IMG/VR virus record: IMGVR_UViG_3300045988_009285
DNA: 6,111 bases
From: a virus
Direction: 5' to 3' (one strand)
The translations under genes and the position numbers were made by a program. Positions 1 to 6,111 of this stretch are shown here, piece by piece. Below the pieces are notes generated by a model. The model searched no databases. It had not been told where the DNA came from and saw only the letters and a program-made list of their open reading frames with translations. The first letter of the stretch is position 1. Every line of letters starts with the position of its first letter.

Positions 1-70
1 GTTTGAGCGTAAAGCAGCTAATTTTAACAAAGCTCTAGAAGCAGCCGAAGCAAAAATTGAAAAAATATGA
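1..70 (+). CDS. Partial CDS: the 3' end of the 43-aa basic ORF, a duplicate of 6023..6092 created by the terminal overlap
   Basis: Reading from nt 2 gives FERKAANFNKALEAAEAKIEKI then stop (TGA 68-70), identical to the C-terminus of ORF 5961..6092. Confidence 0.5.
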   Translation, partial: FERKAANFNKALEAAEAKIEKI

Positions 71-89
71 CGGATAGGGGAAAAAAAAC
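1..89. repeat. Terminal redundancy, copy 1 (identical to 6023..6111); a circularisation overlap, not a biological repeat
   Basis: A base-by-base comparison by eye at offset 6022 found no mismatch. The repeat boundaries cut through two ORFs. Confidence 0.95.
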
Positions 90-252
90 AGATGTGTTTG
101 TTATATTTGCGGTAGAATTCGTTAACGAAAATACAGGACAGGTGGTAACTCTAACTACCACATGTGGAAGCTACAGGGAGTTAGGGAAGTATCTAACAGA
201 AATGAACAAAAAGTCATGGAGAATGCTAAAAGCAACAAGGAAAGAAACTTAA
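67..252 (+). CDS. Hypothetical small protein, 61 aa
   Basis: The ATG at 67 overlaps the TGA of the preceding ORF (ATGA, 67-70), which suggests translational coupling. It is on the same strand as all the core genes. I recognised no motif. Confidence 0.5.
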   Translation: MTDRGKKTDVFVIFAVEFVNENTGQVVTLTTTCGSYRELGKYLTEMNKKSWRMLKATRKET

Positions 253-428
253 TTAAAATTATGATTGTAGCATGGATTATAGCAGCAACACTAGGGGGAT
301 GCGTGGTAAGTCTCAACATTCAGAAGAATAATCAAAACAGCACACAATCCGTATCGCAGGAAAACGAGGCGACTCAAAAAAATGATAGTACTAACTTTAA
401 AATGAATCTAAACAATGAAACAGAATGA
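216..428 (+). CDS. Putative small lipoprotein or signal-anchored membrane protein, 70 aa from Met216
   Basis: The product starts with a basic n-region (MENAKSNKERNLIK), then a hydrophobic stretch (IMIVAWIIAATL), then L-G-G-C (Cys29, lipobox-like). The remaining tail is hydrophilic and rich in N/Q/S/T/E. The longer ORF from 162 adds a non-signal-like extension. An alternative start at 261 would remove the basic n-region. Confidence 0.5.
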   Translation: MENAKSNKERNLIKIMIVAWIIAATLGGCVVSLNIQKNNQNSTQSVSQENEATQKNDSTNFKMNLNNETE

Positions 429-666
429 AATTGATACCAACGAAATCTACAAGGGAATTACAAGAGTCATAAAAACTAAAAAGCAAGACAAAGATGTATG
501 GTTTGCAGTAATCGGCAAAACAATTGTTTCACGTGGAACATTTAATACTAAAGAAGAATGTATAAAAGACCTGGAAAAAACTGATTATGAACAGATTTGT
601 AAGATTGCTATTGCTATTGCTACAGCTCTTAAGGATTATAAACCGGAAAAAGTAGAAAAAGTATGA
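415..666 (+). CDS. Hypothetical protein, 83 aa
   Basis: It overlaps the previous ORF by 14 nt, and its TGA (664-666) overlaps the VP1 ATG (663-665) as ATGA. It has a mixed charged and hydrophobic composition, with no motif I recognise. Confidence 0.6.
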   Translation: MKQNEIDTNEIYKGITRVIKTKKQDKDVWFAVIGKTIVSRGTFNTKEECIKDLEKTDYEQICKIAIAIATALKDYKPEKVEKV

Positions 667-2681
667 AAGTAAACATAGGAAAAAACACACTAGGTGACAA
701 CAATAAGATGTCCGTATCTCTAAGAGAATATGGACGCAGTACCCATGACCTGTCTTATGCGTGGAGGTCACCTATGGGAGTAGGTACACTTGTACCGTTT
801 ATGAAGCTACTGGCGTTACCAGGAGATACATTCGACATCGATTTGGACACAAAAGTGCTGACACATCCGACGGTAGGACCTCTATTCGGGCAATTCAAGA
901 TGCAATTGGACGTATTCACATGTCCATTAAGATTATACCAAGCTCAATTACATAATAATGCACTGAATATTGGGCTGGATATGAAGAAAGTGAAACTGCC
1001 TAAATTCGAAAACAACTTTCAGGTATTAAAAGATGACAAGGCACCGTTTAAAAAATCAAAAAAATCAGGAAAAGGAAGTCTGGCAGAATACCTGGGACTG
1101 AAGTATGAACCTATCAGAGATAAAGTCAACAATGTCAATGCAGTACCTTACTTTGCGTATTACGATGTGTTCAAAAACTTCTACGCCAATAAACAGGAAG
1201 ATTACTTCATGATAATGGGAGGAGGAGTCTTCGTAAGTAATGGAACGGTCACAACAAAGGATACAATACTATATAAAGTAGATAATGCAGGATTATATAT
1301 TAATAGGAAAAATGCTCAAGGAGAAATCGCTAATAAACCCATTCAATTCACAATGTCAAAAGAGTTATGGGAAGCATCAAAAAAAGAGAATACGGTAACA
1401 CTCTACTACGACGTAGATACTGAACCTGTAGGTATTAAGATTAATGGAATTAATTCGTATATCGAAAGTGAAACAGAATCTGGTAACGAAGTAACGGTTA
1501 ATTGCAGAAATAAAACAAAATTAGTATTCGCAGACAAAGAGTTAAGCACGGGAGTTCACACAGCAACAGGAAAGGCATGGACTTCATCACAAGGAGTATG
1601 GATACCATCATACACCAGCTCTTACAAACTTGAAGAAATTGACAACTTAAGGGAGTATATTCTAAAGCAAGGCAAAAAGGAAGTCCTAATAAAGTCTAAT
1701 TCTACGGATGAATGGATAGGAACATCATTCATTAAGGATGTACTGGTAGGGACGGCTAAAGCAGGAGAAAGTGAACCAAAAATCAAGATGCCAATTATTC
1801 AGATGGAGATGGGCGGACTATGCCTAAAGACGCTGCAAAGCGACATCTTTAACAACTGGGTAAACAAAGAGTGGGTAGACGGAGATAATGGAATAAAAGC
1901 AATTACTGACGTAGCAATAACTGACGGGAAACTGAACTTGGACAGCCTGAATATTGCACAGAAGGTATACAACATGCTAAACCGTATTGCAGTGTCAGGA
2001 GGAAGCTATAAGGACTGGATCGAGACGGTATATACTACAGACTATTATTTCAGAGCAGAAACACCTGTATACGAGGGTGGTATGTCTACAATAATTGACT
2101 TTGAAGCCGTAGTAAGTAACTCGGCAAGTACAGCAAGCGGTGTAGAAGAGCCATTGGGAAGCCTGGCAGGACGTGGATACAACGGGCAGAAAAAAGGCGG
2201 AAGGATTGAGATTAAAGTCAATGAACCTTGTTATATCATGGGTATTGCAAGCATTACGCCACTGGTAGACTACTCCCAGGGTAACGACTGGGACAACTGG
2301 CTGGAGACTATGGATGATTTACACAAGCCGCAGCTAGATGGTATCGGTTATCAGGATTTGATGGAAAACAAGATGCACGGACTGGCAAAACCGTCACTGG
2401 CAATAGGAAAGCAGCCTGCATGGCTGGACTACATGACCAACTTCAATAAGACATTCGCAGATTTCGCAGCAGGTGAACAGGAAAGCTATATGGTACTGAA
2501 CCGTATCTACAATGTGGATGACAAGGGAAATATCACAAATTCAACAACATATATCAATCCAAAAGACTACACATATATCTTTGCGACCAACACAGAGACC
2601 AACAGAGACTTCTGGGTACAGATTGGCTGCGGAGTAACCTCAAGACGAGTAATGAGCGCAGCTCAGATTCCATTAATGTAA
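663..2681 (+). CDS. VP1: Major capsid protein VP1 (Microviridae F-protein family), 672 aa
   Basis: The N-terminal block ...GTLVPFMKLLALPGDTFDIDLDTKV...GPLFGQFKMQLDVFTCPLRLY carries the LPGDTF signature typical of microvirus capsids. AVPYFAYYDVFKNFYANKQ matches the conserved (L)P(F)xAYxxIxNxxY block. LNIAQKVYNMLNRIAVSGGSYKDWIETVY matches the conserved R-A-x-x-Q-x-x-x-E-x-x-A-R-G-G-x-R-Y-like block. It is the largest ORF in the window. Met16 (nt 708) is a possible alternative start. Confidence 0.95.
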   Translation: MKVNIGKNTLGDNNKMSVSLREYGRSTHDLSYAWRSPMGVGTLVPFMKLLALPGDTFDIDLDTKVLTHPTVGPLFGQFKMQLDVFTCPLRLYQAQLHNNALNIGLDMKKVKLPKFENNFQVLKDDKAPFKKSKKSGKGSLAEYLGLKYEPIRDKVNNVNAVPYFAYYDVFKNFYANKQEDYFMIMGGGVFVSNGTVTTKDTILYKVDNAGLYINRKNAQGEIANKPIQFTMSKELWEASKKENTVTLYYDVDTEPVGIKINGINSYIESETESGNEVTVNCRNKTKLVFADKELSTGVHTATGKAWTSSQGVWIPSYTSSYKLEEIDNLREYILKQGKKEVLIKSNSTDEWIGTSFIKDVLVGTAKAGESEPKIKMPIIQMEMGGLCLKTLQSDIFNNWVNKEWVDGDNGIKAITDVAITDGKLNLDSLNIAQKVYNMLNRIAVSGGSYKDWIETVYTTDYYFRAETPVYEGGMSTIIDFEAVVSNSASTASGVEEPLGSLAGRGYNGQKKGGRIEIKVNEPCYIMGIASITPLVDYSQGNDWDNWLETMDDLHKPQLDGIGYQDLMENKMHGLAKPSLAIGKQPAWLDYMTNFNKTFADFAAGEQESYMVLNRIYNVDDKGNITNSTTYINPKDYTYIFATNTETNRDFWVQIGCGVTSRRVMSAAQIPLM

Positions 2682-3025: not shown

Positions 3026-3042
3026 CACTCGGGTTAAACAAC

Positions 3043-3064
3043 TGTGCGTACTTCGGTACGCACA
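3043..3064 (+). other. Perfect 9-bp stem-loop with a TTCG tetraloop (tgtgcgtac-ttcg-gtacgcaca)
   Basis: The inverted repeat is read directly from the sequence and lies 18 nt after the stop of ORF 2693..3025. A weaker 6-bp hairpin (cgcttt-tgaa-aaagcg) follows at 3093..3108. It could be a terminator or attenuator, an RNA-stability element, or an ssDNA structural element. Confidence 0.6.
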
Positions 3065-3123
3065 CAGCCATATATATCAAGTTATGTATAACCGCTTTTG
3101 AAAAAGCGCGAAAACGACACAAT

Positions 3124-4206
3124 ATGGGATTCTTAAATTTTTTAGACAAAGGAGGAGGCGGCCTGATTACAGGAATTGCCAACACAATAACAGGAGCTGT
3201 ACAGAACAAACAGGCACTGGCATGGCAGAAGGAACAGTGGCAGCAACAGATGCAGTACGGACGAGAGATGTGGGAGAAGCAGAACCAGGCAGAAAATGAC
3301 CGTATGGCGCTGCAAAACCAGTGGAACAAGGATGCAGCAGCACAGTCTCAACAGTATGCCAAAGAGATGTTTGACTACACGGGATACGAGAACCAGGTGA
3401 AGCAGATGAAAGCAGCAGGACTAAATCCGGCACTGATGAACGGTGGCGGAGGTTCAGCGGGACAAGCAAGTGCAGGAGCCGAAGTACAGCCAGCACAGGC
3501 ATTTCAGCCGATGGGAATACAGATGGCATTACAGGCACAGCAAGTAATGGCTAACACTCAGCTAGCTAATGCTCAGGCTCAGAAGACAAGAGCCGAGGCT
3601 ACGGCACAGAACATGCAGAACCTGGTAGGCAGTAGCATCGACCTGGCTCAGAAGATTGCCGAGATTGGCAGGACAAAGCAGGAGAAAAAGAACCTGGAAG
3701 TTACCTACGCCAAAACAAAGGAAGAGGTCGAGAAAGTTCAGGAAGAAGTCAATAACCTTATGCTACAGGGAGATATATTGAAAGAAAACAAAGAACTGCT
3801 TGAATTCCAGAACGGAGTGAACAAAATTATCAAGAATGGAATACACTTCGATAGCAAAGGTAAAGAGATAGATTGGGAGCAGTCAGTACTCATGAGATAT
3901 TTCGGGCCTCTCGGTAAGGAAATAGCACAATGGGATAAAGACGAGCAGCAGGCACTGTTCGACAAAGGTGTCCTGGAGCGCATGATGAAAGATATAGACG
4001 CCATTGCAACAGGAAAGACAAACGAATTCTCACTAGCGGGAATGAAGTTCGACTTAATGCAGAAACAGTGGGAAAGAGCAGACTTCGAGCTGGAGCAGGA
4101 CAAGGCAGCATCCAAGCTGCTTGATGAGATGACAGGCGAAGGAGAATATGCGAGACTGCTAGGTAAGGTCTTGAAGCTACTGTTAATAGACCGCAAAAGC
4201 AAGTAA
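3124..4206 (+). CDS. VP2: Minor capsid / DNA pilot protein VP2 (functional analogue of phiX H), 360 aa
   Basis: The N-terminus is glycine-rich (DKGGGGLITGIANTITG). The central motif QVKQMKAAGLNPALMNGGGGS matches the AAGLNP(M/A)L signature I associate with gokushovirus-type VP2. Long heptad-like helical regions rich in Q, A, E and K are consistent with a coiled-coil tube. The position between VP1 and VP4 also fits. Confidence 0.85.
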   Translation: MGFLNFLDKGGGGLITGIANTITGAVQNKQALAWQKEQWQQQMQYGREMWEKQNQAENDRMALQNQWNKDAAAQSQQYAKEMFDYTGYENQVKQMKAAGLNPALMNGGGGSAGQASAGAEVQPAQAFQPMGIQMALQAQQVMANTQLANAQAQKTRAEATAQNMQNLVGSSIDLAQKIAEIGRTKQEKKNLEVTYAKTKEEVEKVQEEVNNLMLQGDILKENKELLEFQNGVNKIIKNGIHFDSKGKEIDWEQSVLMRYFGPLGKEIAQWDKDEQQALFDKGVLERMMKDIDAIATGKTNEFSLAGMKFDLMQKQWERADFELEQDKAASKLLDEMTGEGEYARLLGKVLKLLLIDRKSK

Positions 4207-4281
4207 GTCGCGCGCGTACGTATATCGCACACGCACGGAATCAGCTTGACGGTCATATTATGGGCGTGACCCACAAGGGGT

Positions 4282-4344
4282 CGGGCTTTCCGCTGCAATT
4301 CCTCCTTCGCTTCGCTCTGTGCGGGATTTCCGCTGCAATCCCTC
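4282..4344 (+). repeat. Two copies of a 23-nt direct repeat, cgggNtttccgctgcaatNcctc (4282..4304 and 4322..4344), identical at 21 of 23 positions, period 40 nt
   Basis: Aligned by eye, with mismatches only at repeat positions 5 and 19. The repeat lies in the GC-rich VP2-VP4 intergenic region. The spacer contains the tandem cttcg-cttcg. Confidence 0.85.
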
Positions 4345-4409
4345 ACGCGCTATGCAGAATTCGCTACTATATGGCGCGCAATCGCCGCGCGGCTAGCATA
4401 CATAACAAC

Positions 4410-4465
4410 AAGAGGTCGGACCAACAGAAGATGGTAACATCATCGGAAGAAGGTTGCGACCTCTT
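4410..4465 (+). other. Compound stem-loop in three parts: an outer stem, a helix and an apical hairpin
   Basis: The outer 9-bp stem pairs aagaggtcg (4410-4418) with cgacctctt (4457-4465). After a 3-nt bulge there is a 4-bp helix (4422-4425 with 4453-4456). The apical hairpin is gatg-gtaa-catc (4430-4441). All pairings were read directly from the sequence. The structure ends about 50 nt upstream of the VP4 start. Confidence 0.6.
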
Positions 4466-4516
4466 ATTGCTATGTATGGATGTTATTTTAAAGTAAAACT
4501 TAAACAATTATATGGT

Positions 4517-5536
4517 ATGTGCCTGTATACTAAGTATTTATTAAACAAAAAGTATTTACCGACAAAGAAAAATGAATATAATCCGCCAACATGCAATGAC
4601 GAAAGATTGAGATATGTGCCGATAAAGTGCGGGAAGTGCATGGAGTGCCGAAAACAAAAGAAAAGAGAATGGTACGTGCGGCTGTCAGAAGAGTTGAAAC
4701 AGCACAAGGGAGCACTATTCGTGACTCTGACATTCAATGAAGATATGTATGAAGAGACGCGCAAGGCCGTGAAGGCAGGAAACCAGCCGACCTATGAAGA
4801 AGAGAATGACATGTGCCGTTATGCGATAAGACACTGGCTGGAACTGATACGCAAAAGAACGGGAAAGTCCGTCAAGCACTGGGTAATTACAGAGAAAGGT
4901 GAAGACTATAACCGCATACACATGCACGGTATAGTATGGTGCAAAAAAGAAGACGTAGACGCATGGCGTTACGGATATACCTATATAGGGGATTATGTCA
5001 ACGGCAAAACAATCAACTATATAACCAAGTATATGCTGAAAATCAACGAGATATGTCCTGAATTCGAGGGGAAAGTATTCTGCAGTAAAGGTATTGGCCG
5101 AAATTACGAAAAAAGCACAAATGCAAGGCGTAACAGATACCAGGGAGAACGTACTATCGAGACTTACAAGGCAGAGGACGGCCGAGAACTGCCAATGCCA
5201 AAGTACTACCACGACAAGATATACTCAGAAGAAGAGCGCGAAAAGTTATGGATTATCAAACAGGAAAGAGGATACAGATACATAGGAGGTGAAAAGTGCA
5301 GTACAGAAGACCTCGAAGAATGGGATAACTTAACAAGATATTATCAGAGACGGGGTGTAGAAGTATTCGGAGACAAGCCAGACGAATGGGAAAAAAATAA
5401 ACAGCGAAAGCGCCTGGAACGTATGCGTATAGCCAGACGTCGGATGCGCGAAGGTTCCGAAGTTCCCGGAGTTCTCTCCAGACCAGAAGGTAGGGAGCCT
5501 GCGGCTCCGATTATTAACAAGGCTACGCGCGGCTAG
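4517..5536 (+). CDS. VP4: Replication initiation protein VP4 (HUH rolling-circle endonuclease, phiX A-protein family), 339 aa from Met4517
   Basis: There is a Cys cluster, CGKCMECRKQKKREW. RCR motif I is FVTLTF (4718-4735). Motif II is the HUH sequence HMHGIVW (H-M-H at 4919-4927). Motif III, YITKY (5018-5032), has two Tyr residues spaced as in phiX A (YVAKY). An N-terminus of MCLYTK... matches the usual MC... start of microvirus VP4, so I prefer 4517 to the ORF-track start at 4454, which lies within and just downstream of the 3' arm of the upstream hairpin. Confidence 0.92.
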   Translation: MCLYTKYLLNKKYLPTKKNEYNPPTCNDERLRYVPIKCGKCMECRKQKKREWYVRLSEELKQHKGALFVTLTFNEDMYEETRKAVKAGNQPTYEEENDMCRYAIRHWLELIRKRTGKSVKHWVITEKGEDYNRIHMHGIVWCKKEDVDAWRYGYTYIGDYVNGKTINYITKYMLKINEICPEFEGKVFCSKGIGRNYEKSTNARRNRYQGERTIETYKAEDGRELPMPKYYHDKIYSEEEREKLWIIKQERGYRYIGGEKCSTEDLEEWDNLTRYYQRRGVEVFGDKPDEWEKNKQRKRLERMRIARRRMREGSEVPGVLSRPEGREPAAPIINKATRG

Positions 5537-5540
5537 CGCG

Positions 5541-5566
5541 CTGCCCGTGACAGCACTCACGGGCGG
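5541..5566 (+). terminator. GC-rich stem-loop immediately after the VP4 stop; candidate terminator or ssDNA structural element
   Basis: gcccgtga (5543-5550) pairs with tcacgggc (5557-5564) around the 6-nt loop cagcac. A T-G pair and a C-G pair extend the stem to 5541/5566. No T-tract follows, so it is not a canonical intrinsic terminator. Confidence 0.35.
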
Positions 5567-5611
5567 CCTTGGGCCAACTATGTGCAAGGCTCCAAGTATT
5601 CACCTTGTGGA

Positions 5612-5677
5612 TGTTGATAACCTGTTGATAACCTAGTAAAATCGGTTAATAAACCTGTTAATAACTTGTTGATAAAA
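5612..5677 (+). repeat. Iteron-like array A: five + strand copies of TGTT(G/A)ATAAC
   Basis: The first two copies form a perfect 11-nt tandem, tgttgataacc (5612-5622 and 5623-5633). The remaining copies are ggttaataaacc (5644-5655), tgttaataac (5656-5665) and tgttgataaaa (5667-5677). All were read directly. Confidence 0.85.
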
Positions 5678-5724
5678 TAAATGCTTATAATTTGGAATAT
5701 TGAAATGTTTTATTATAAGAAAAT

Positions 5725-5821
5725 GCTTATGAACAATGCAAATAATTTAACAGAAAGTTATGAACAAAGTTATGAACAGGATAAATGATTGAAAATAAAT
5801 GAATTAACATAGTTATGAACA
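5725..5821 (-). repeat. Iteron-like array B: four copies of (a/g)(g/c)TTATGAACA, whose reverse complement TGTTCATAAC is the array A motif with a C at the variable central base
   Basis: The copies are gcttatgaaca (5725-5735), a perfect 12-nt tandem aagttatgaaca (5755-5766 and 5767-5778), and agttatgaaca (5811-5821). On the minus strand they read TGTTCATAAC, so they face array A. Confidence 0.85.
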
Positions 5822-5905
5822 ATTTCAACAGGCTATTATCACTATAATAAGTTTTTATATATAAAAAAAGAAATAAATATATAATAATAGAATTTCTCAA
5901 AAAAT

Positions 5906-5935
5906 TTTGTGTTTTCAAAAAAATGCGTATATTTG
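5906..5935 (+). promoter_or_regulatory. Candidate Bacteroidota-type promoter: a -33 TTTG (5906-5909) and a -7 TAnnTTTG (tatatttg, 5928-5935)
   Basis: The -7 element matches the Bacteroides primary-sigma consensus TAnnTTTG exactly, with a TTTG 18 nt upstream. It sits 25 nt upstream of the ATG at 5961, which opens the long co-directional gene string. None of the gene starts has a Shine-Dalgarno sequence, as is typical of Bacteroidota. Confidence 0.5.
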
Positions 5936-5960
5936 TAATGTAATAAAAAAACAAAGAATT

Positions 5961-6092
5961 ATGAAGAATTATATGATTTATCTAGAAAGGAAAGACAGAC
6001 GTAGAACGTATAGGTACTTTAGGTTTGAGCGTAAAGCAGCTAATTTTAACAAAGCTCTAGAAGCAGCCGAAGCAAAAATTGAAAAAATATGA
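5961..6092 (+). CDS. Small, highly basic protein of 43 aa; candidate DNA-binding or packaging peptide (functional analogue of phiX J)
   Basis: The sequence is MKNYMIYLERKDRRRTYRYFRFERKAANFNKALEAAEAKIEKI. It has 13 Lys/Arg in 43 residues, 9 of them within residues 10-25. It is the first ORF after the candidate promoter, and its TGA overlaps the next ATG (ATGA at 6089-6092, equivalent to 67-70). The ORF-track start at 5907 lies upstream of the predicted promoter -7 box, so 5961 is preferred. Confidence 0.5.
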   Translation: MKNYMIYLERKDRRRTYRYFRFERKAANFNKALEAAEAKIEKI

Positions 6093-6111
6093 CGGATAGG
6101 GGAAAAAAAAC
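6023..6111. repeat. Terminal redundancy, copy 2 (identical to 1..89)
   Basis: Same as copy 1. It contains the 3' end of ORF 5961..6092 and the first 23 nt of the ORF that starts at 67 (equivalent to 6089). Confidence 0.95.

Follow-up and report, generated by a model that had tools for sequence, protein, structure and literature searches.

A two-armed array of DnaA-box-like repeats, conserved downstream of the replication initiator gene in a clade of gut microviruses

The window studied here is the whole 6,111-nt stretch of the IMG/VR virus record IMGVR_UViG_3300045988_009285. Since its positions 1-89 recur at 6023-6111, we infer that it represents a single circular genome of 6,022 nt. This genome is that of a microvirus, with all its genes oriented on the plus strand. 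Its major capsid protein is less than 50% identical to any GenBank phage protein, the relatives found there being all uncultured faecal viruses, and no near match was found among GenBank phages. Metagenomes yielded 6,157 protein relatives, every one on a contig of about 6 kb; one contig of 23 kb is a concatemer. No prophage copy was found, Rep and VP1 being absent from all 120 genome loci listed in the scan described below. The genes, together with one non-coding element, are arranged as follows:

67-252, plus strand: orf67, small, clade-specific
162-428, plus strand: orf162, small, clade-specific
415-666, plus strand: orf415, small, clade-specific
663-2681, plus strand: major capsid protein (VP1), Phage_F family
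3034-3123: conserved non-coding hairpin element, between a 110-aa ORF and the pilot gene
3124-4206, plus strand: pilot protein
4454-5536, plus strand: Rep (VP4), replication initiator; the ORF opens at 4454 and its stop is at 5536, while relatives align from M22, the ATG at 4517

The largest A+T-rich non-coding stretch of the genome occupies 5537-5960. Its G+C content goes down to 19-25% and it includes repeats, which begin 76 nt 3′ of the Rep stop codon. A first-pass annotation of the sequence had singled out the segment 5612-5677, reading tgttgataacc tgttgataacc tagtaaaatcggttaataaacc tgttaataac ttgttgataaaa, as five direct copies of a 10-11-nt unit. The five-fold repetition is confirmed. 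TGTTRATAA is present on the plus strand at 5612, 5623, 5656 and 5667, and a degenerate fifth copy at 5644-5652 (ggttaataaac) matches TGTTNATAA at 8 of 9 positions. The perfect 11-nt tandem (tgttgataacc twice) is likewise present, 5612-5622 being identical to 5623-5633. Dinucleotide shuffling of 5612-5677 gives an expectation of 0.02 copies of TGTTRATAA, with two copies or more in 0.01% of 20,000 shuffles. For the whole window the expectation is 0.18, and five copies were reached in 0 of 200 shuffles. An additional TGTTRATAA lies on the minus strand at 5511, within Rep.

The size of the unit and the extent of the array, on the other hand, had to be revised. The conserved unit is nine bases long and leaves its middle base free: TGTTNATAA, reading TTATNAACA on the other strand and (A)(G)TTATNAACA(R) in its extended form. 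Further 3′, within 5727-5821, four exact copies stand in the opposite orientation (TTATGAACA on the plus strand, at 5727, 5758, 5770 and 5813); the array has two arms and eight strict boxes, and the five reported copies form its left arm. Eight strict boxes are found in 5597-5860 against 0.095 expected. The whole array, 5612-5830 or about 220 bp, is made of eight strict and three degenerate 9-bp boxes, the strict ones being four on one strand and four on the other, and a 51-nt spacer separates the arms. The array and its right flank comprise:

5612..5620, minus strand: box b1, TTATCAACA (TGTTGATAA on the plus strand), conserved in the 18-genome alignment
5623..5631, minus strand: box b2, TTATCAACA, 11 bp past b1, conserved in the alignment
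5644..5652, minus strand: degenerate box bx, TTATTAACC, within the invariant AAAATCGGTTAATAAAC; TTATTAACCGA in 13-14 of the 18 genomes
5656..5664, minus strand: box b3, TTATTAACA, middle base T or C among relatives
5667..5675, minus strand: box b4, TTATCAACA
5687..5697: conserved motif in the spacer that separates the arms, reading ATAATTTGGAA here and AAAATTTGGAA in relatives
5727..5735, plus strand: box b5, TTATGAACA, 60 bp past b4
5758..5766, plus strand: box b6, TTATGAACA
5770..5778, plus strand: box b7, TTATGAACA, 12 bp past b6
5802..5809, plus strand: degenerate box by, AATTAACA, from the alignment
5813..5821, plus strand: box b8, TTATGAACA
5823..5830, plus strand: degenerate box bz, TTTCAACA, abutting b8; a pair of box and degenerate box is also seen in the dnaA-linked origin L248
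5831..5839, plus strand: GGCTAT(T/C)AT after the last box, near-invariant; a possible G/C cluster and first DnaA-trios (CTA TTA), by resemblance only
5840..5905: very A+T-rich stretch, about 19% G+C, poorly conserved; candidate unwinding region
5906..5935, plus strand: promoter-like site of Bacteroidota type, TTTG-N18-TATATTTG, 26 nt before the ATG at 5961, conserved in most genomes with the module

Boxes of both orientations occur, at intervals of 11 bp, 12 bp or multiples of about 10.5 bp. At a helical repeat of 10.5 bp all 11 boxes fall on one face of the DNA (R = 0.78), with P = 0.009 when the period is fixed and 0.06 when it is scanned. Such a phase fits protein assembly on duplex DNA.

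The first-pass annotation had proposed to align the region across relatives. Rep relatives were collected from 48 viral contigs, and the boxes are present in all of the twelve closest (Rep 56-94% identical). Pattern scans and GenBank brought further genomes with the module (L094, L118, L128, L145, L352, L357), and a sister group with Rep at about 47% identity carries it as well (MT135366, MG945660, L297, L314, L321, L329, L334, L337). Altogether, at least 18 microvirus genomes, with Rep 47-94% and VP1 42-84% identical, possess the eight-box module with unchanged spacing; start-to-start distances of 11, 33, 11, 60, 31, 12 and 43 are identical wherever the module is complete. Units and spacing are thus both conserved. 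In the alignment of 18 distinct modules, which provides 106 box instances, each of the eight specified positions is at least 98% invariant, and the fifth may be any base (C 39, G 49, T 13, A 5); AG precedes and a purine follows most boxes. Conservation is stronger in the module than in either flank, the Rep C-terminus to the left and the first gene to the right, which are both mosaic.

The boxes are absent from 36 Rep relatives (Rep 23-58% identical, mostly 44-51%), in which a k-mer search found no alternative repeated motif; these genomes bear a conserved G+C-rich block instead. As these relatives evidently replicate, the module is evidently not universally required. Host phylum was considered as the cause of its presence or absence and rejected: Shine-Dalgarno sites are few in both groups, and TTTG..TAnnTTTG is found in many members of both.

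Conserved, non-coding and placed just past Rep, the array would suit ordered sites for a sequence-specific DNA-binding protein, and to this extent the proposal of an iteron array holds. It had also been proposed that the repeats resemble the phiX174 origin. Taken together, these ideas would make the boxes iterons of the phage Rep (VP4), marking an intergenic plus-strand origin related to that of phiX174, a reading that we regard as very improbable. The site does lie directly 3′ of Rep, and HUH Reps of other ssDNA replicons use iterons. Both viruses are Microviridae with A+T-rich DNA, and a few short literal matches exist, namely TTAATAAC (5658-5665) and TAACTTG (5662-5668). However, these matches do not exceed chance. 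The best ungapped match of the phiX 30-mer (CAACTTGATATTAATAACACTATAGACCAC) in the genome is 18/30, the shuffle mean being 18.1 and 77% of shuffles doing equally well or better. Its first 18 nt reach 13/18 against 12.75 in shuffles, and within the A+T-rich region the 30-mer scores 18 against 16.8, with 20% of shuffles as good. Moreover, relatives do not keep the bases that match. The A of TTAATAAC falls on the free position of a box, where 10 of 18 genomes have A and 8 have G, and at the C of AACTTG the base is C, G or A. The phiX-matching bases are by-products of boxes b3 and b4. The phiX174 site is also a single copy inside gene A, whereas the array described here is iterated and intergenic. 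Homology with the phiX174 origin was rejected on these grounds.

The boxes do not co-vary with Rep either. They remain identical over Rep identities of 47-100% and are missing from genomes at 44-51%; being constant down to 47% and absent at equal Rep similarity, they are unlikely to be Rep-specific iterons. Between the arms there is no conserved stem-loop with a nick motif: the 51-nt spacer holds one conserved motif (AAAATTTGGAA) and no conserved hairpin, and the consensus fold of the module lacks covariation. In addition, the box 9-mer is widespread outside microviruses, and the element at 3034-3123 is far more widely conserved than the array.

What, then, could bind these boxes? Eight of the nine positions of TTATNAACA agree with the DnaA-box consensus TTATNCACA, and both leave the fifth base free. 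The stringent E. coli consensus demands C at position 6; all eight boxes have A there and so depart from TTATNCACA as E. coli uses it. In a scan of 185,579 species genomes, we looked for runs of three TTATSAACA with gaps of 0-30 nt in between. Such triple clusters occur at no fewer than 120 loci in many phyla, where about 0.5 would be expected by chance under uniform composition. Bacteroidota account for 31 of the 120 matches listed. In 18 of these 120, dnaA (Bac_DnaA plus Bac_DnaA_C in Pfam) lies within about 1 kb, against some 0.3 expected; the dnaA-linked clusters among the matches listed belong to Oscillospiraceae, Lachnospiraceae, Clostridium, Bacilli, Poribacteria, Fibrobacterota and others. 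They are built of TTATCAACA and TTATGAACA, often plus TTATCCACA, with CTACTACTA repeats and A+T-rich DNA next to them, and are recognisable as typical origins. One of them even holds TGTTGATAAccTGTTGATAAc, which is identical to window positions 5612-5632. The box type of the module is one used in chromosomal origins beside dnaA.

The variant and the canonical box can also be tied to each other, because they interchange at b4 in sister microviruses and abut in Prevotellaceae. The b4 homologue is TGTGAATAA, that is the canonical TTATTCACA, in MG945660, L297, L314, L329 and L334, and stays TGTTGATAA in L321, L337 and the clade of the window. In a Prevotellaceae intergenic region of 26% G+C, boxes of TTATNAACA type adjoin canonical ones, and on other phage contigs canonical and variant boxes are interleaved. 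The 9-mer is common in bacterial origins and in unrelated phages alike. Among Bacteroidales chromosomal clusters, none could be demonstrated to be oriC: they are scattered beside unrelated genes. A shared chromosomal locus of this kind was rejected, the neighbours (bactofilin, shikimate kinase, ABC-F protein, fimbrillins, NadA and others) being mutually unrelated. Some of these clusters lie upstream of tRNA promoters. Our literature search found no paper on a Bacteroidota DnaA-box consensus and none on microvirus DnaA boxes; a primer sequence places TGTTGATAAC about 240 bp upstream of the P. gingivalis dnaA (PMC4222909).

On balance, and with modest confidence, we therefore favour an oriC-like array that would bind host DnaA on the replicative form, an assignment drawn from sequence comparison. 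With the replicative form as its double-stranded substrate, host DnaA would first occupy the strict boxes and then spread across the weaker sites that are in phase, giving two opposed oligomers as at a chromosomal origin. Since the right arm ends in a box, a degenerate box, GG and CTA TTA followed by DNA of 19% G+C, DnaA would most likely help to open the phage duplex or to load replication proteins onto it. The module could thus be a replication enhancer or a mini-oriC working alongside the rolling-circle Rep. In full, the right arm ends with TTATGAACA-a-TTTCAACA-GG-CTA TTA TCA CTA, then about 65 nt at 19% G+C, and the G+C content of 5801-6000 is also 19%. This succession of box, degenerate box, G/C cluster and CTA repeats resembles the ends of dnaA-linked origins, and we take it as a resemblance only: just the first one or two triplets after the last box are conserved, and the trio-like sequence is weak, with no clear run.

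The likeness to bacterial oriC arrays extends to several features: a 9-mer with a free fifth base, boxes 11-12 bp apart, two opposed arms, a single helical face and an adjoining A+T-rich stretch. The dnaA-side arrays of Clostridia, Bacilli, Poribacteria and others use the identical TTATSAACA. The differences are no less clear. The microvirus array belongs to an ssDNA phage of 6 kb with an HUH rolling-circle Rep of its own, the boxes of the array have A and not C at position 6, and no clear trio run follows them. Helicase loading and bidirectional replication are features of oriC, to which the array is likened by its sequence and layout.

DnaA-box arrays carried by phages have a precedent, given that the injection-stop (iss) region of T5-like phages lists the same variant boxes. 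This conserved non-coding set comprises eight DnaA boxes in inverted groups, including the variants TTATCAACA and TTATTAACA, often 3 bp apart; replication does not start from this region, and what it does is still hypothetical (bioRxiv 10.1101/866236). T5 differs in that it is a large phage with dsDNA, infects Enterobacteria and has canonical sequence in about half of its boxes, and the proposed arrest of injection at the membrane has no microvirus counterpart. As far as the literature searched shows, DnaA-box clusters are known in phages and plasmids, and one on a rolling-circle ssDNA microvirus has not been described.

Accessory elements are familiar from other ssDNA phages. The origin of the filamentous phage f1 includes an A+T-rich domain B, an enhancer bound by host IHF. 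As may be the case here, a host protein acts on an A+T-rich accessory element beside rolling-circle initiator genes or sites, and the element would be dispensable in some lineages. In f1, nevertheless, the protein is IHF and not DnaA, no 9-mer array exists, and the nick site is adjacent and known. IHF itself was considered for the microvirus array and rejected by inspection: its consensus WATCAANNNNTTR fits the 11-bp tandem (minus strand) and not the plus-strand TTATGAACA boxes.

A sub-variant of DnaA binding would place the protein on single-stranded DNA. Masai, Nomura and Arai reportedly described in 1990 a DnaA-dependent ‘A site’ serving an ABC primosome on plasmids such as R6K; we know of no description of such a site in any natural ssDNA phage. 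There, a duplex DnaA box on an ssDNA hairpin could prime the complementary strand. The arms of the microvirus array can pair box to box, and by folding back they might let DnaA nucleate a primosome for complementary-strand synthesis. This possibility would account for the equal number of boxes in each orientation. The predicted ssDNA fold of 5505-5960 is strong (z = -5.2) and nests b4:b5, b3:by, bx:b8 and b2:bz, with mismatches at the base that DnaA does not read. We nonetheless consider it improbable to a high degree. The strong z-score of the single sequence is attributable to the inverted boxes and to G+C hairpins at 5526-5564, whereas for the consensus fold, built from 18 sequences, the covariation term is -0.07 and only 1 of 39 pairs has a compensatory change. 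The spacing of one arm (11/33/11) does not mirror that of the other (31/12/43). In two of the four box pairs purine faces purine at the free position, and it is to duplex DNA that the shared helical phase belongs. The plasmid site, besides, is one hairpin with one box, compared with eleven boxes over 220 nt, unmirrored and without covariation; and the hairpin element at 3034-3123 could itself be a complementary-strand origin. A conserved ssDNA or RNA structure of the module was rejected, its consensus fold showing no covariation, and Rfam gave no match in the window or in six relatives.

The boxes might also be operators for a phage-encoded protein, that of orf67 or orf415, regulating transcription or replication. 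The three small genes orf67, orf162 and orf415 are present in 15-16 of 17 genomes with the module as compared with 0-2 of 36 without it. Weak homologues of all three, in syntenic positions, are present in MT135366, the most distant genome with the module, and the module stands upstream of the promoter that would drive them. This co-occurrence is, however, confounded by shared ancestry. The small ORF proteins belong to no Pfam or PHROG family, and AlphaFold models of the orf67 and orf415 proteins (pLDDT 73 and 75) display neither helix-turn-helix nor ribbon-helix-helix. No significant structural match to a DNA-binding fold was found for them in the PDB, the best hit being no better than E = 0.25. 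While these two proteins are confined to microvirus-sized contigs, arrays of the 9-mer with the same free position occur beside dnaA and in phages devoid of them, and we judge this explanation unlikely. A 43-aa basic protein, suggested earlier as a binding partner to assay, was rejected in this role, as just one other module genome has one.

We give about the same low credence to a host factor other than DnaA, such as a Bacteroidota promoter-upstream activator or a nucleoid protein, for which the module would be an enhancer or silencer of the promoter at 5906-5935. The distribution of box runs elsewhere speaks for it. Of 128 box runs on viral contigs other than those of microviruses, 38 have TAnnTTTG 15-60 nt further on, the distances peaking sharply at 38-40 nt. 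It follows 6 of 38 runs at Bacteroidota genome loci, compared with 3 and 1 in control distance bins, and clusters there occur upstream of tRNA promoters and beside unrelated genes. Many large phage contigs show a box pair fixed 38-40 nt upstream of the TAnnTTTG promoter element, a distance that suits a transcription factor as well as DnaA. Yet the microvirus promoter is some 250 nt from the left arm, with none at 15-150 nt. The association with dnaA across phyla and the interchange of AACA and CACA point to DnaA, which is a transcription factor itself, so that promoter-linked pairs are compatible with it.

Returning to DnaA, the promoter-like site bears on the host as well. We take TTTG-N18-TATATTTG to be the consensus for the Bacteroidota primary sigma factor. 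A Shine-Dalgarno-like sequence precedes 1 of 61 ORFs in the module genomes, and this near absence, combined with the promoter-like motif, makes a Bacteroidota host likely.

Whether this gut microvirus clade carries a working miniature chromosomal origin, at which DnaA would open the replicative form or prime the folded single strand, is a proposal that we put forward tentatively. If true, the replication of a rolling-circle ssDNA phage would be coupled to the initiation machinery of its host and to the state of the cell cycle. The array would then be the first cis-acting replication signal defined for these microviruses, predicting dependence on DnaA, or its titration by hundreds of copies of the replicative form. 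It would also offer a sequence-based clue to the host, with TTATNAACA as a naturally used form of the DnaA box, perhaps that of Bacteroidota. Microviruses are among the most abundant phages of the animal gut, and this clade has thousands of relatives in public data; cis-acting replication signals outside phiX174 and G4 are essentially unmapped.

With the homology to the phiX origin removed, the search for the Rep nick site is redirected to 3034-3123. No other non-coding element is conserved so widely across the group, and it is a better candidate than the box repeats for an origin, or for a replication signal that enzymes of phage or host recognise. Its core, TATCAAGT...CGCTTT...AAAGCGCGAAAA, is found in 34 of 49 genomes, those without the module included. 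The only exact 9-mer match of the genome to the phiX174 nick-site core is located here: ATATCAAGT reads on the opposite strand ACTTGATAT (3074-3082), identical at 9/9 positions, with a chance expectation of 0.04 per window. ACTTGATAT is present in 24 of 48 Rep relatives, always on the strand opposite the genes; as the phiX site sits on the coding-sense strand, the match may be a coincidence. The element consists of a first hairpin, GTGCGTAC-ttcg-GTACGCAC, then ATATATATCAAGTTATG, and of a second one, CGCTTTT-gaaa-AAAGCG, then CGAAAAC, in whose stem the seventh pair co-varies (UA 11, GC 8, CG 3).

Among all non-coding elements of this virus group, the most widely conserved is a two-hairpin element retained in 34 of the 49 genomes, genomes that lack the box module being among them.

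3034-3123, two-hairpin non-coding element, with hairpins at 3044-3063 and 3092-3108 around ATATATATCAAGTTATG
3074-3082, minus strand, ACTTGATAT, identical at all nine positions to the phiX174 nick-site core

One stem pair of the element co-varies. The match to the phiX174 nick-site core differs from the window's genes in its orientation, as it is carried by the opposite strand. We regard this element as a candidate replication origin.

Two G+C-rich regions of the window, on either side of the gene for the replication initiator Rep (VP4), have a narrower distribution. The first extends from the pilot gene to the probable Rep start at 4517, and the second separates Rep from the first box of the module.

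4207-4516, G+C-rich stretch of 310 nt, reaching 57% G+C
4282-4311 and 4322-4351, 30-nt direct repeat within this stretch
4397-4418 and 4457-4478, 22-nt inverted repeat in the same region, 91% complementary
5520-5611, G+C-rich block with two strong hairpins
about 5526-5541, hairpin 1 of this block, with the Rep stop codon inside it
5543-5564, hairpin 2 of this block, GCCCGTGA-CAGCAC-TCACGGGC

Conservation of the 4207-4516 stretch is confined to the module-bearing clade, and the 78-aa ORF annotated within it (4260-4496) is possibly no genuine gene. The block at 5520-5611 is found in only part of the module-bearing genomes (L001, L002, L007, L009, L012 and a few more) and its presence is independent of Rep similarity; it looks like a mosaic insertion. 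Relatives without the box module (L014, L015, L017, L018, L020, L021, L025, L036 and L046) carry directly 3′ of Rep a block of some 250 nt of conserved, G+C-rich non-coding DNA, exemplified by L021 at about 5230-5420, which contains GTGTATAACGGGAGG followed by GGTGTGCGGCTCYGCCGATAYYAAGGTRCTAGACGYTAAGG. This block looks structured; it matched no Rfam family and displayed no blastn similarity to the window.

Three small ORFs that occur on no contigs other than those of microviruses are likewise restricted to module-bearing genomes.

67-666, overlapping ORFs of 61 aa, 88 aa (membrane-like) and 83 aa

None of the three could be assigned to a family. AlphaFold modelling yielded two folds, beta-beta-alpha-beta and alpha-beta-beta...alpha-alpha, and no significant structural neighbour was found for either.

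Some public contigs of this clade are concatemers, L283 (JGI Ga0074315_1001455, 23,483 nt) and L010/L155 (8,618 nt) consisting of head-to-tail copies of the roughly 6-kb genome. They are not prophages; such concatemeric contigs are open to misreading as integrated copies.

Read on the viral (+) strand, nearly all boxes at 5612-5821, whatever their orientation, have a purine as their free middle base (position 5), that is, C/T in minus-strand boxes and G/A in plus-strand boxes. Pairing of the two arms would oppose purine to purine at these positions. This bias may merely reflect the purine-rich composition of the strand.

Boxes also occur in large viral contigs of 10-400 kb unrelated to microviruses (among L050-L162). 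Each of these genomes has many copies of a box pair, TGTTGATAACTTTGTTGATAAC, that precedes a TAnnTTTG promoter element at a fixed distance of 38-40 nt; the 413-kb IMGVR_UViG_3300031994_000001 carries this promoter-linked pair at at least eight sites. In other contigs (L084, L114, L122 and L136), TTATCAACA boxes are interspersed with canonical TTATCCACA and TTATACACA boxes. The E. coli nrd genes are classical DnaA-regulated genes. A triple TTATSAACA cluster was observed in a Bacteroidales MAG (L250, 215-255), about 100 nt past the 3′ end of a gene for the large subunit of ribonucleotide reductase, but here the position is downstream of the gene and not upstream.
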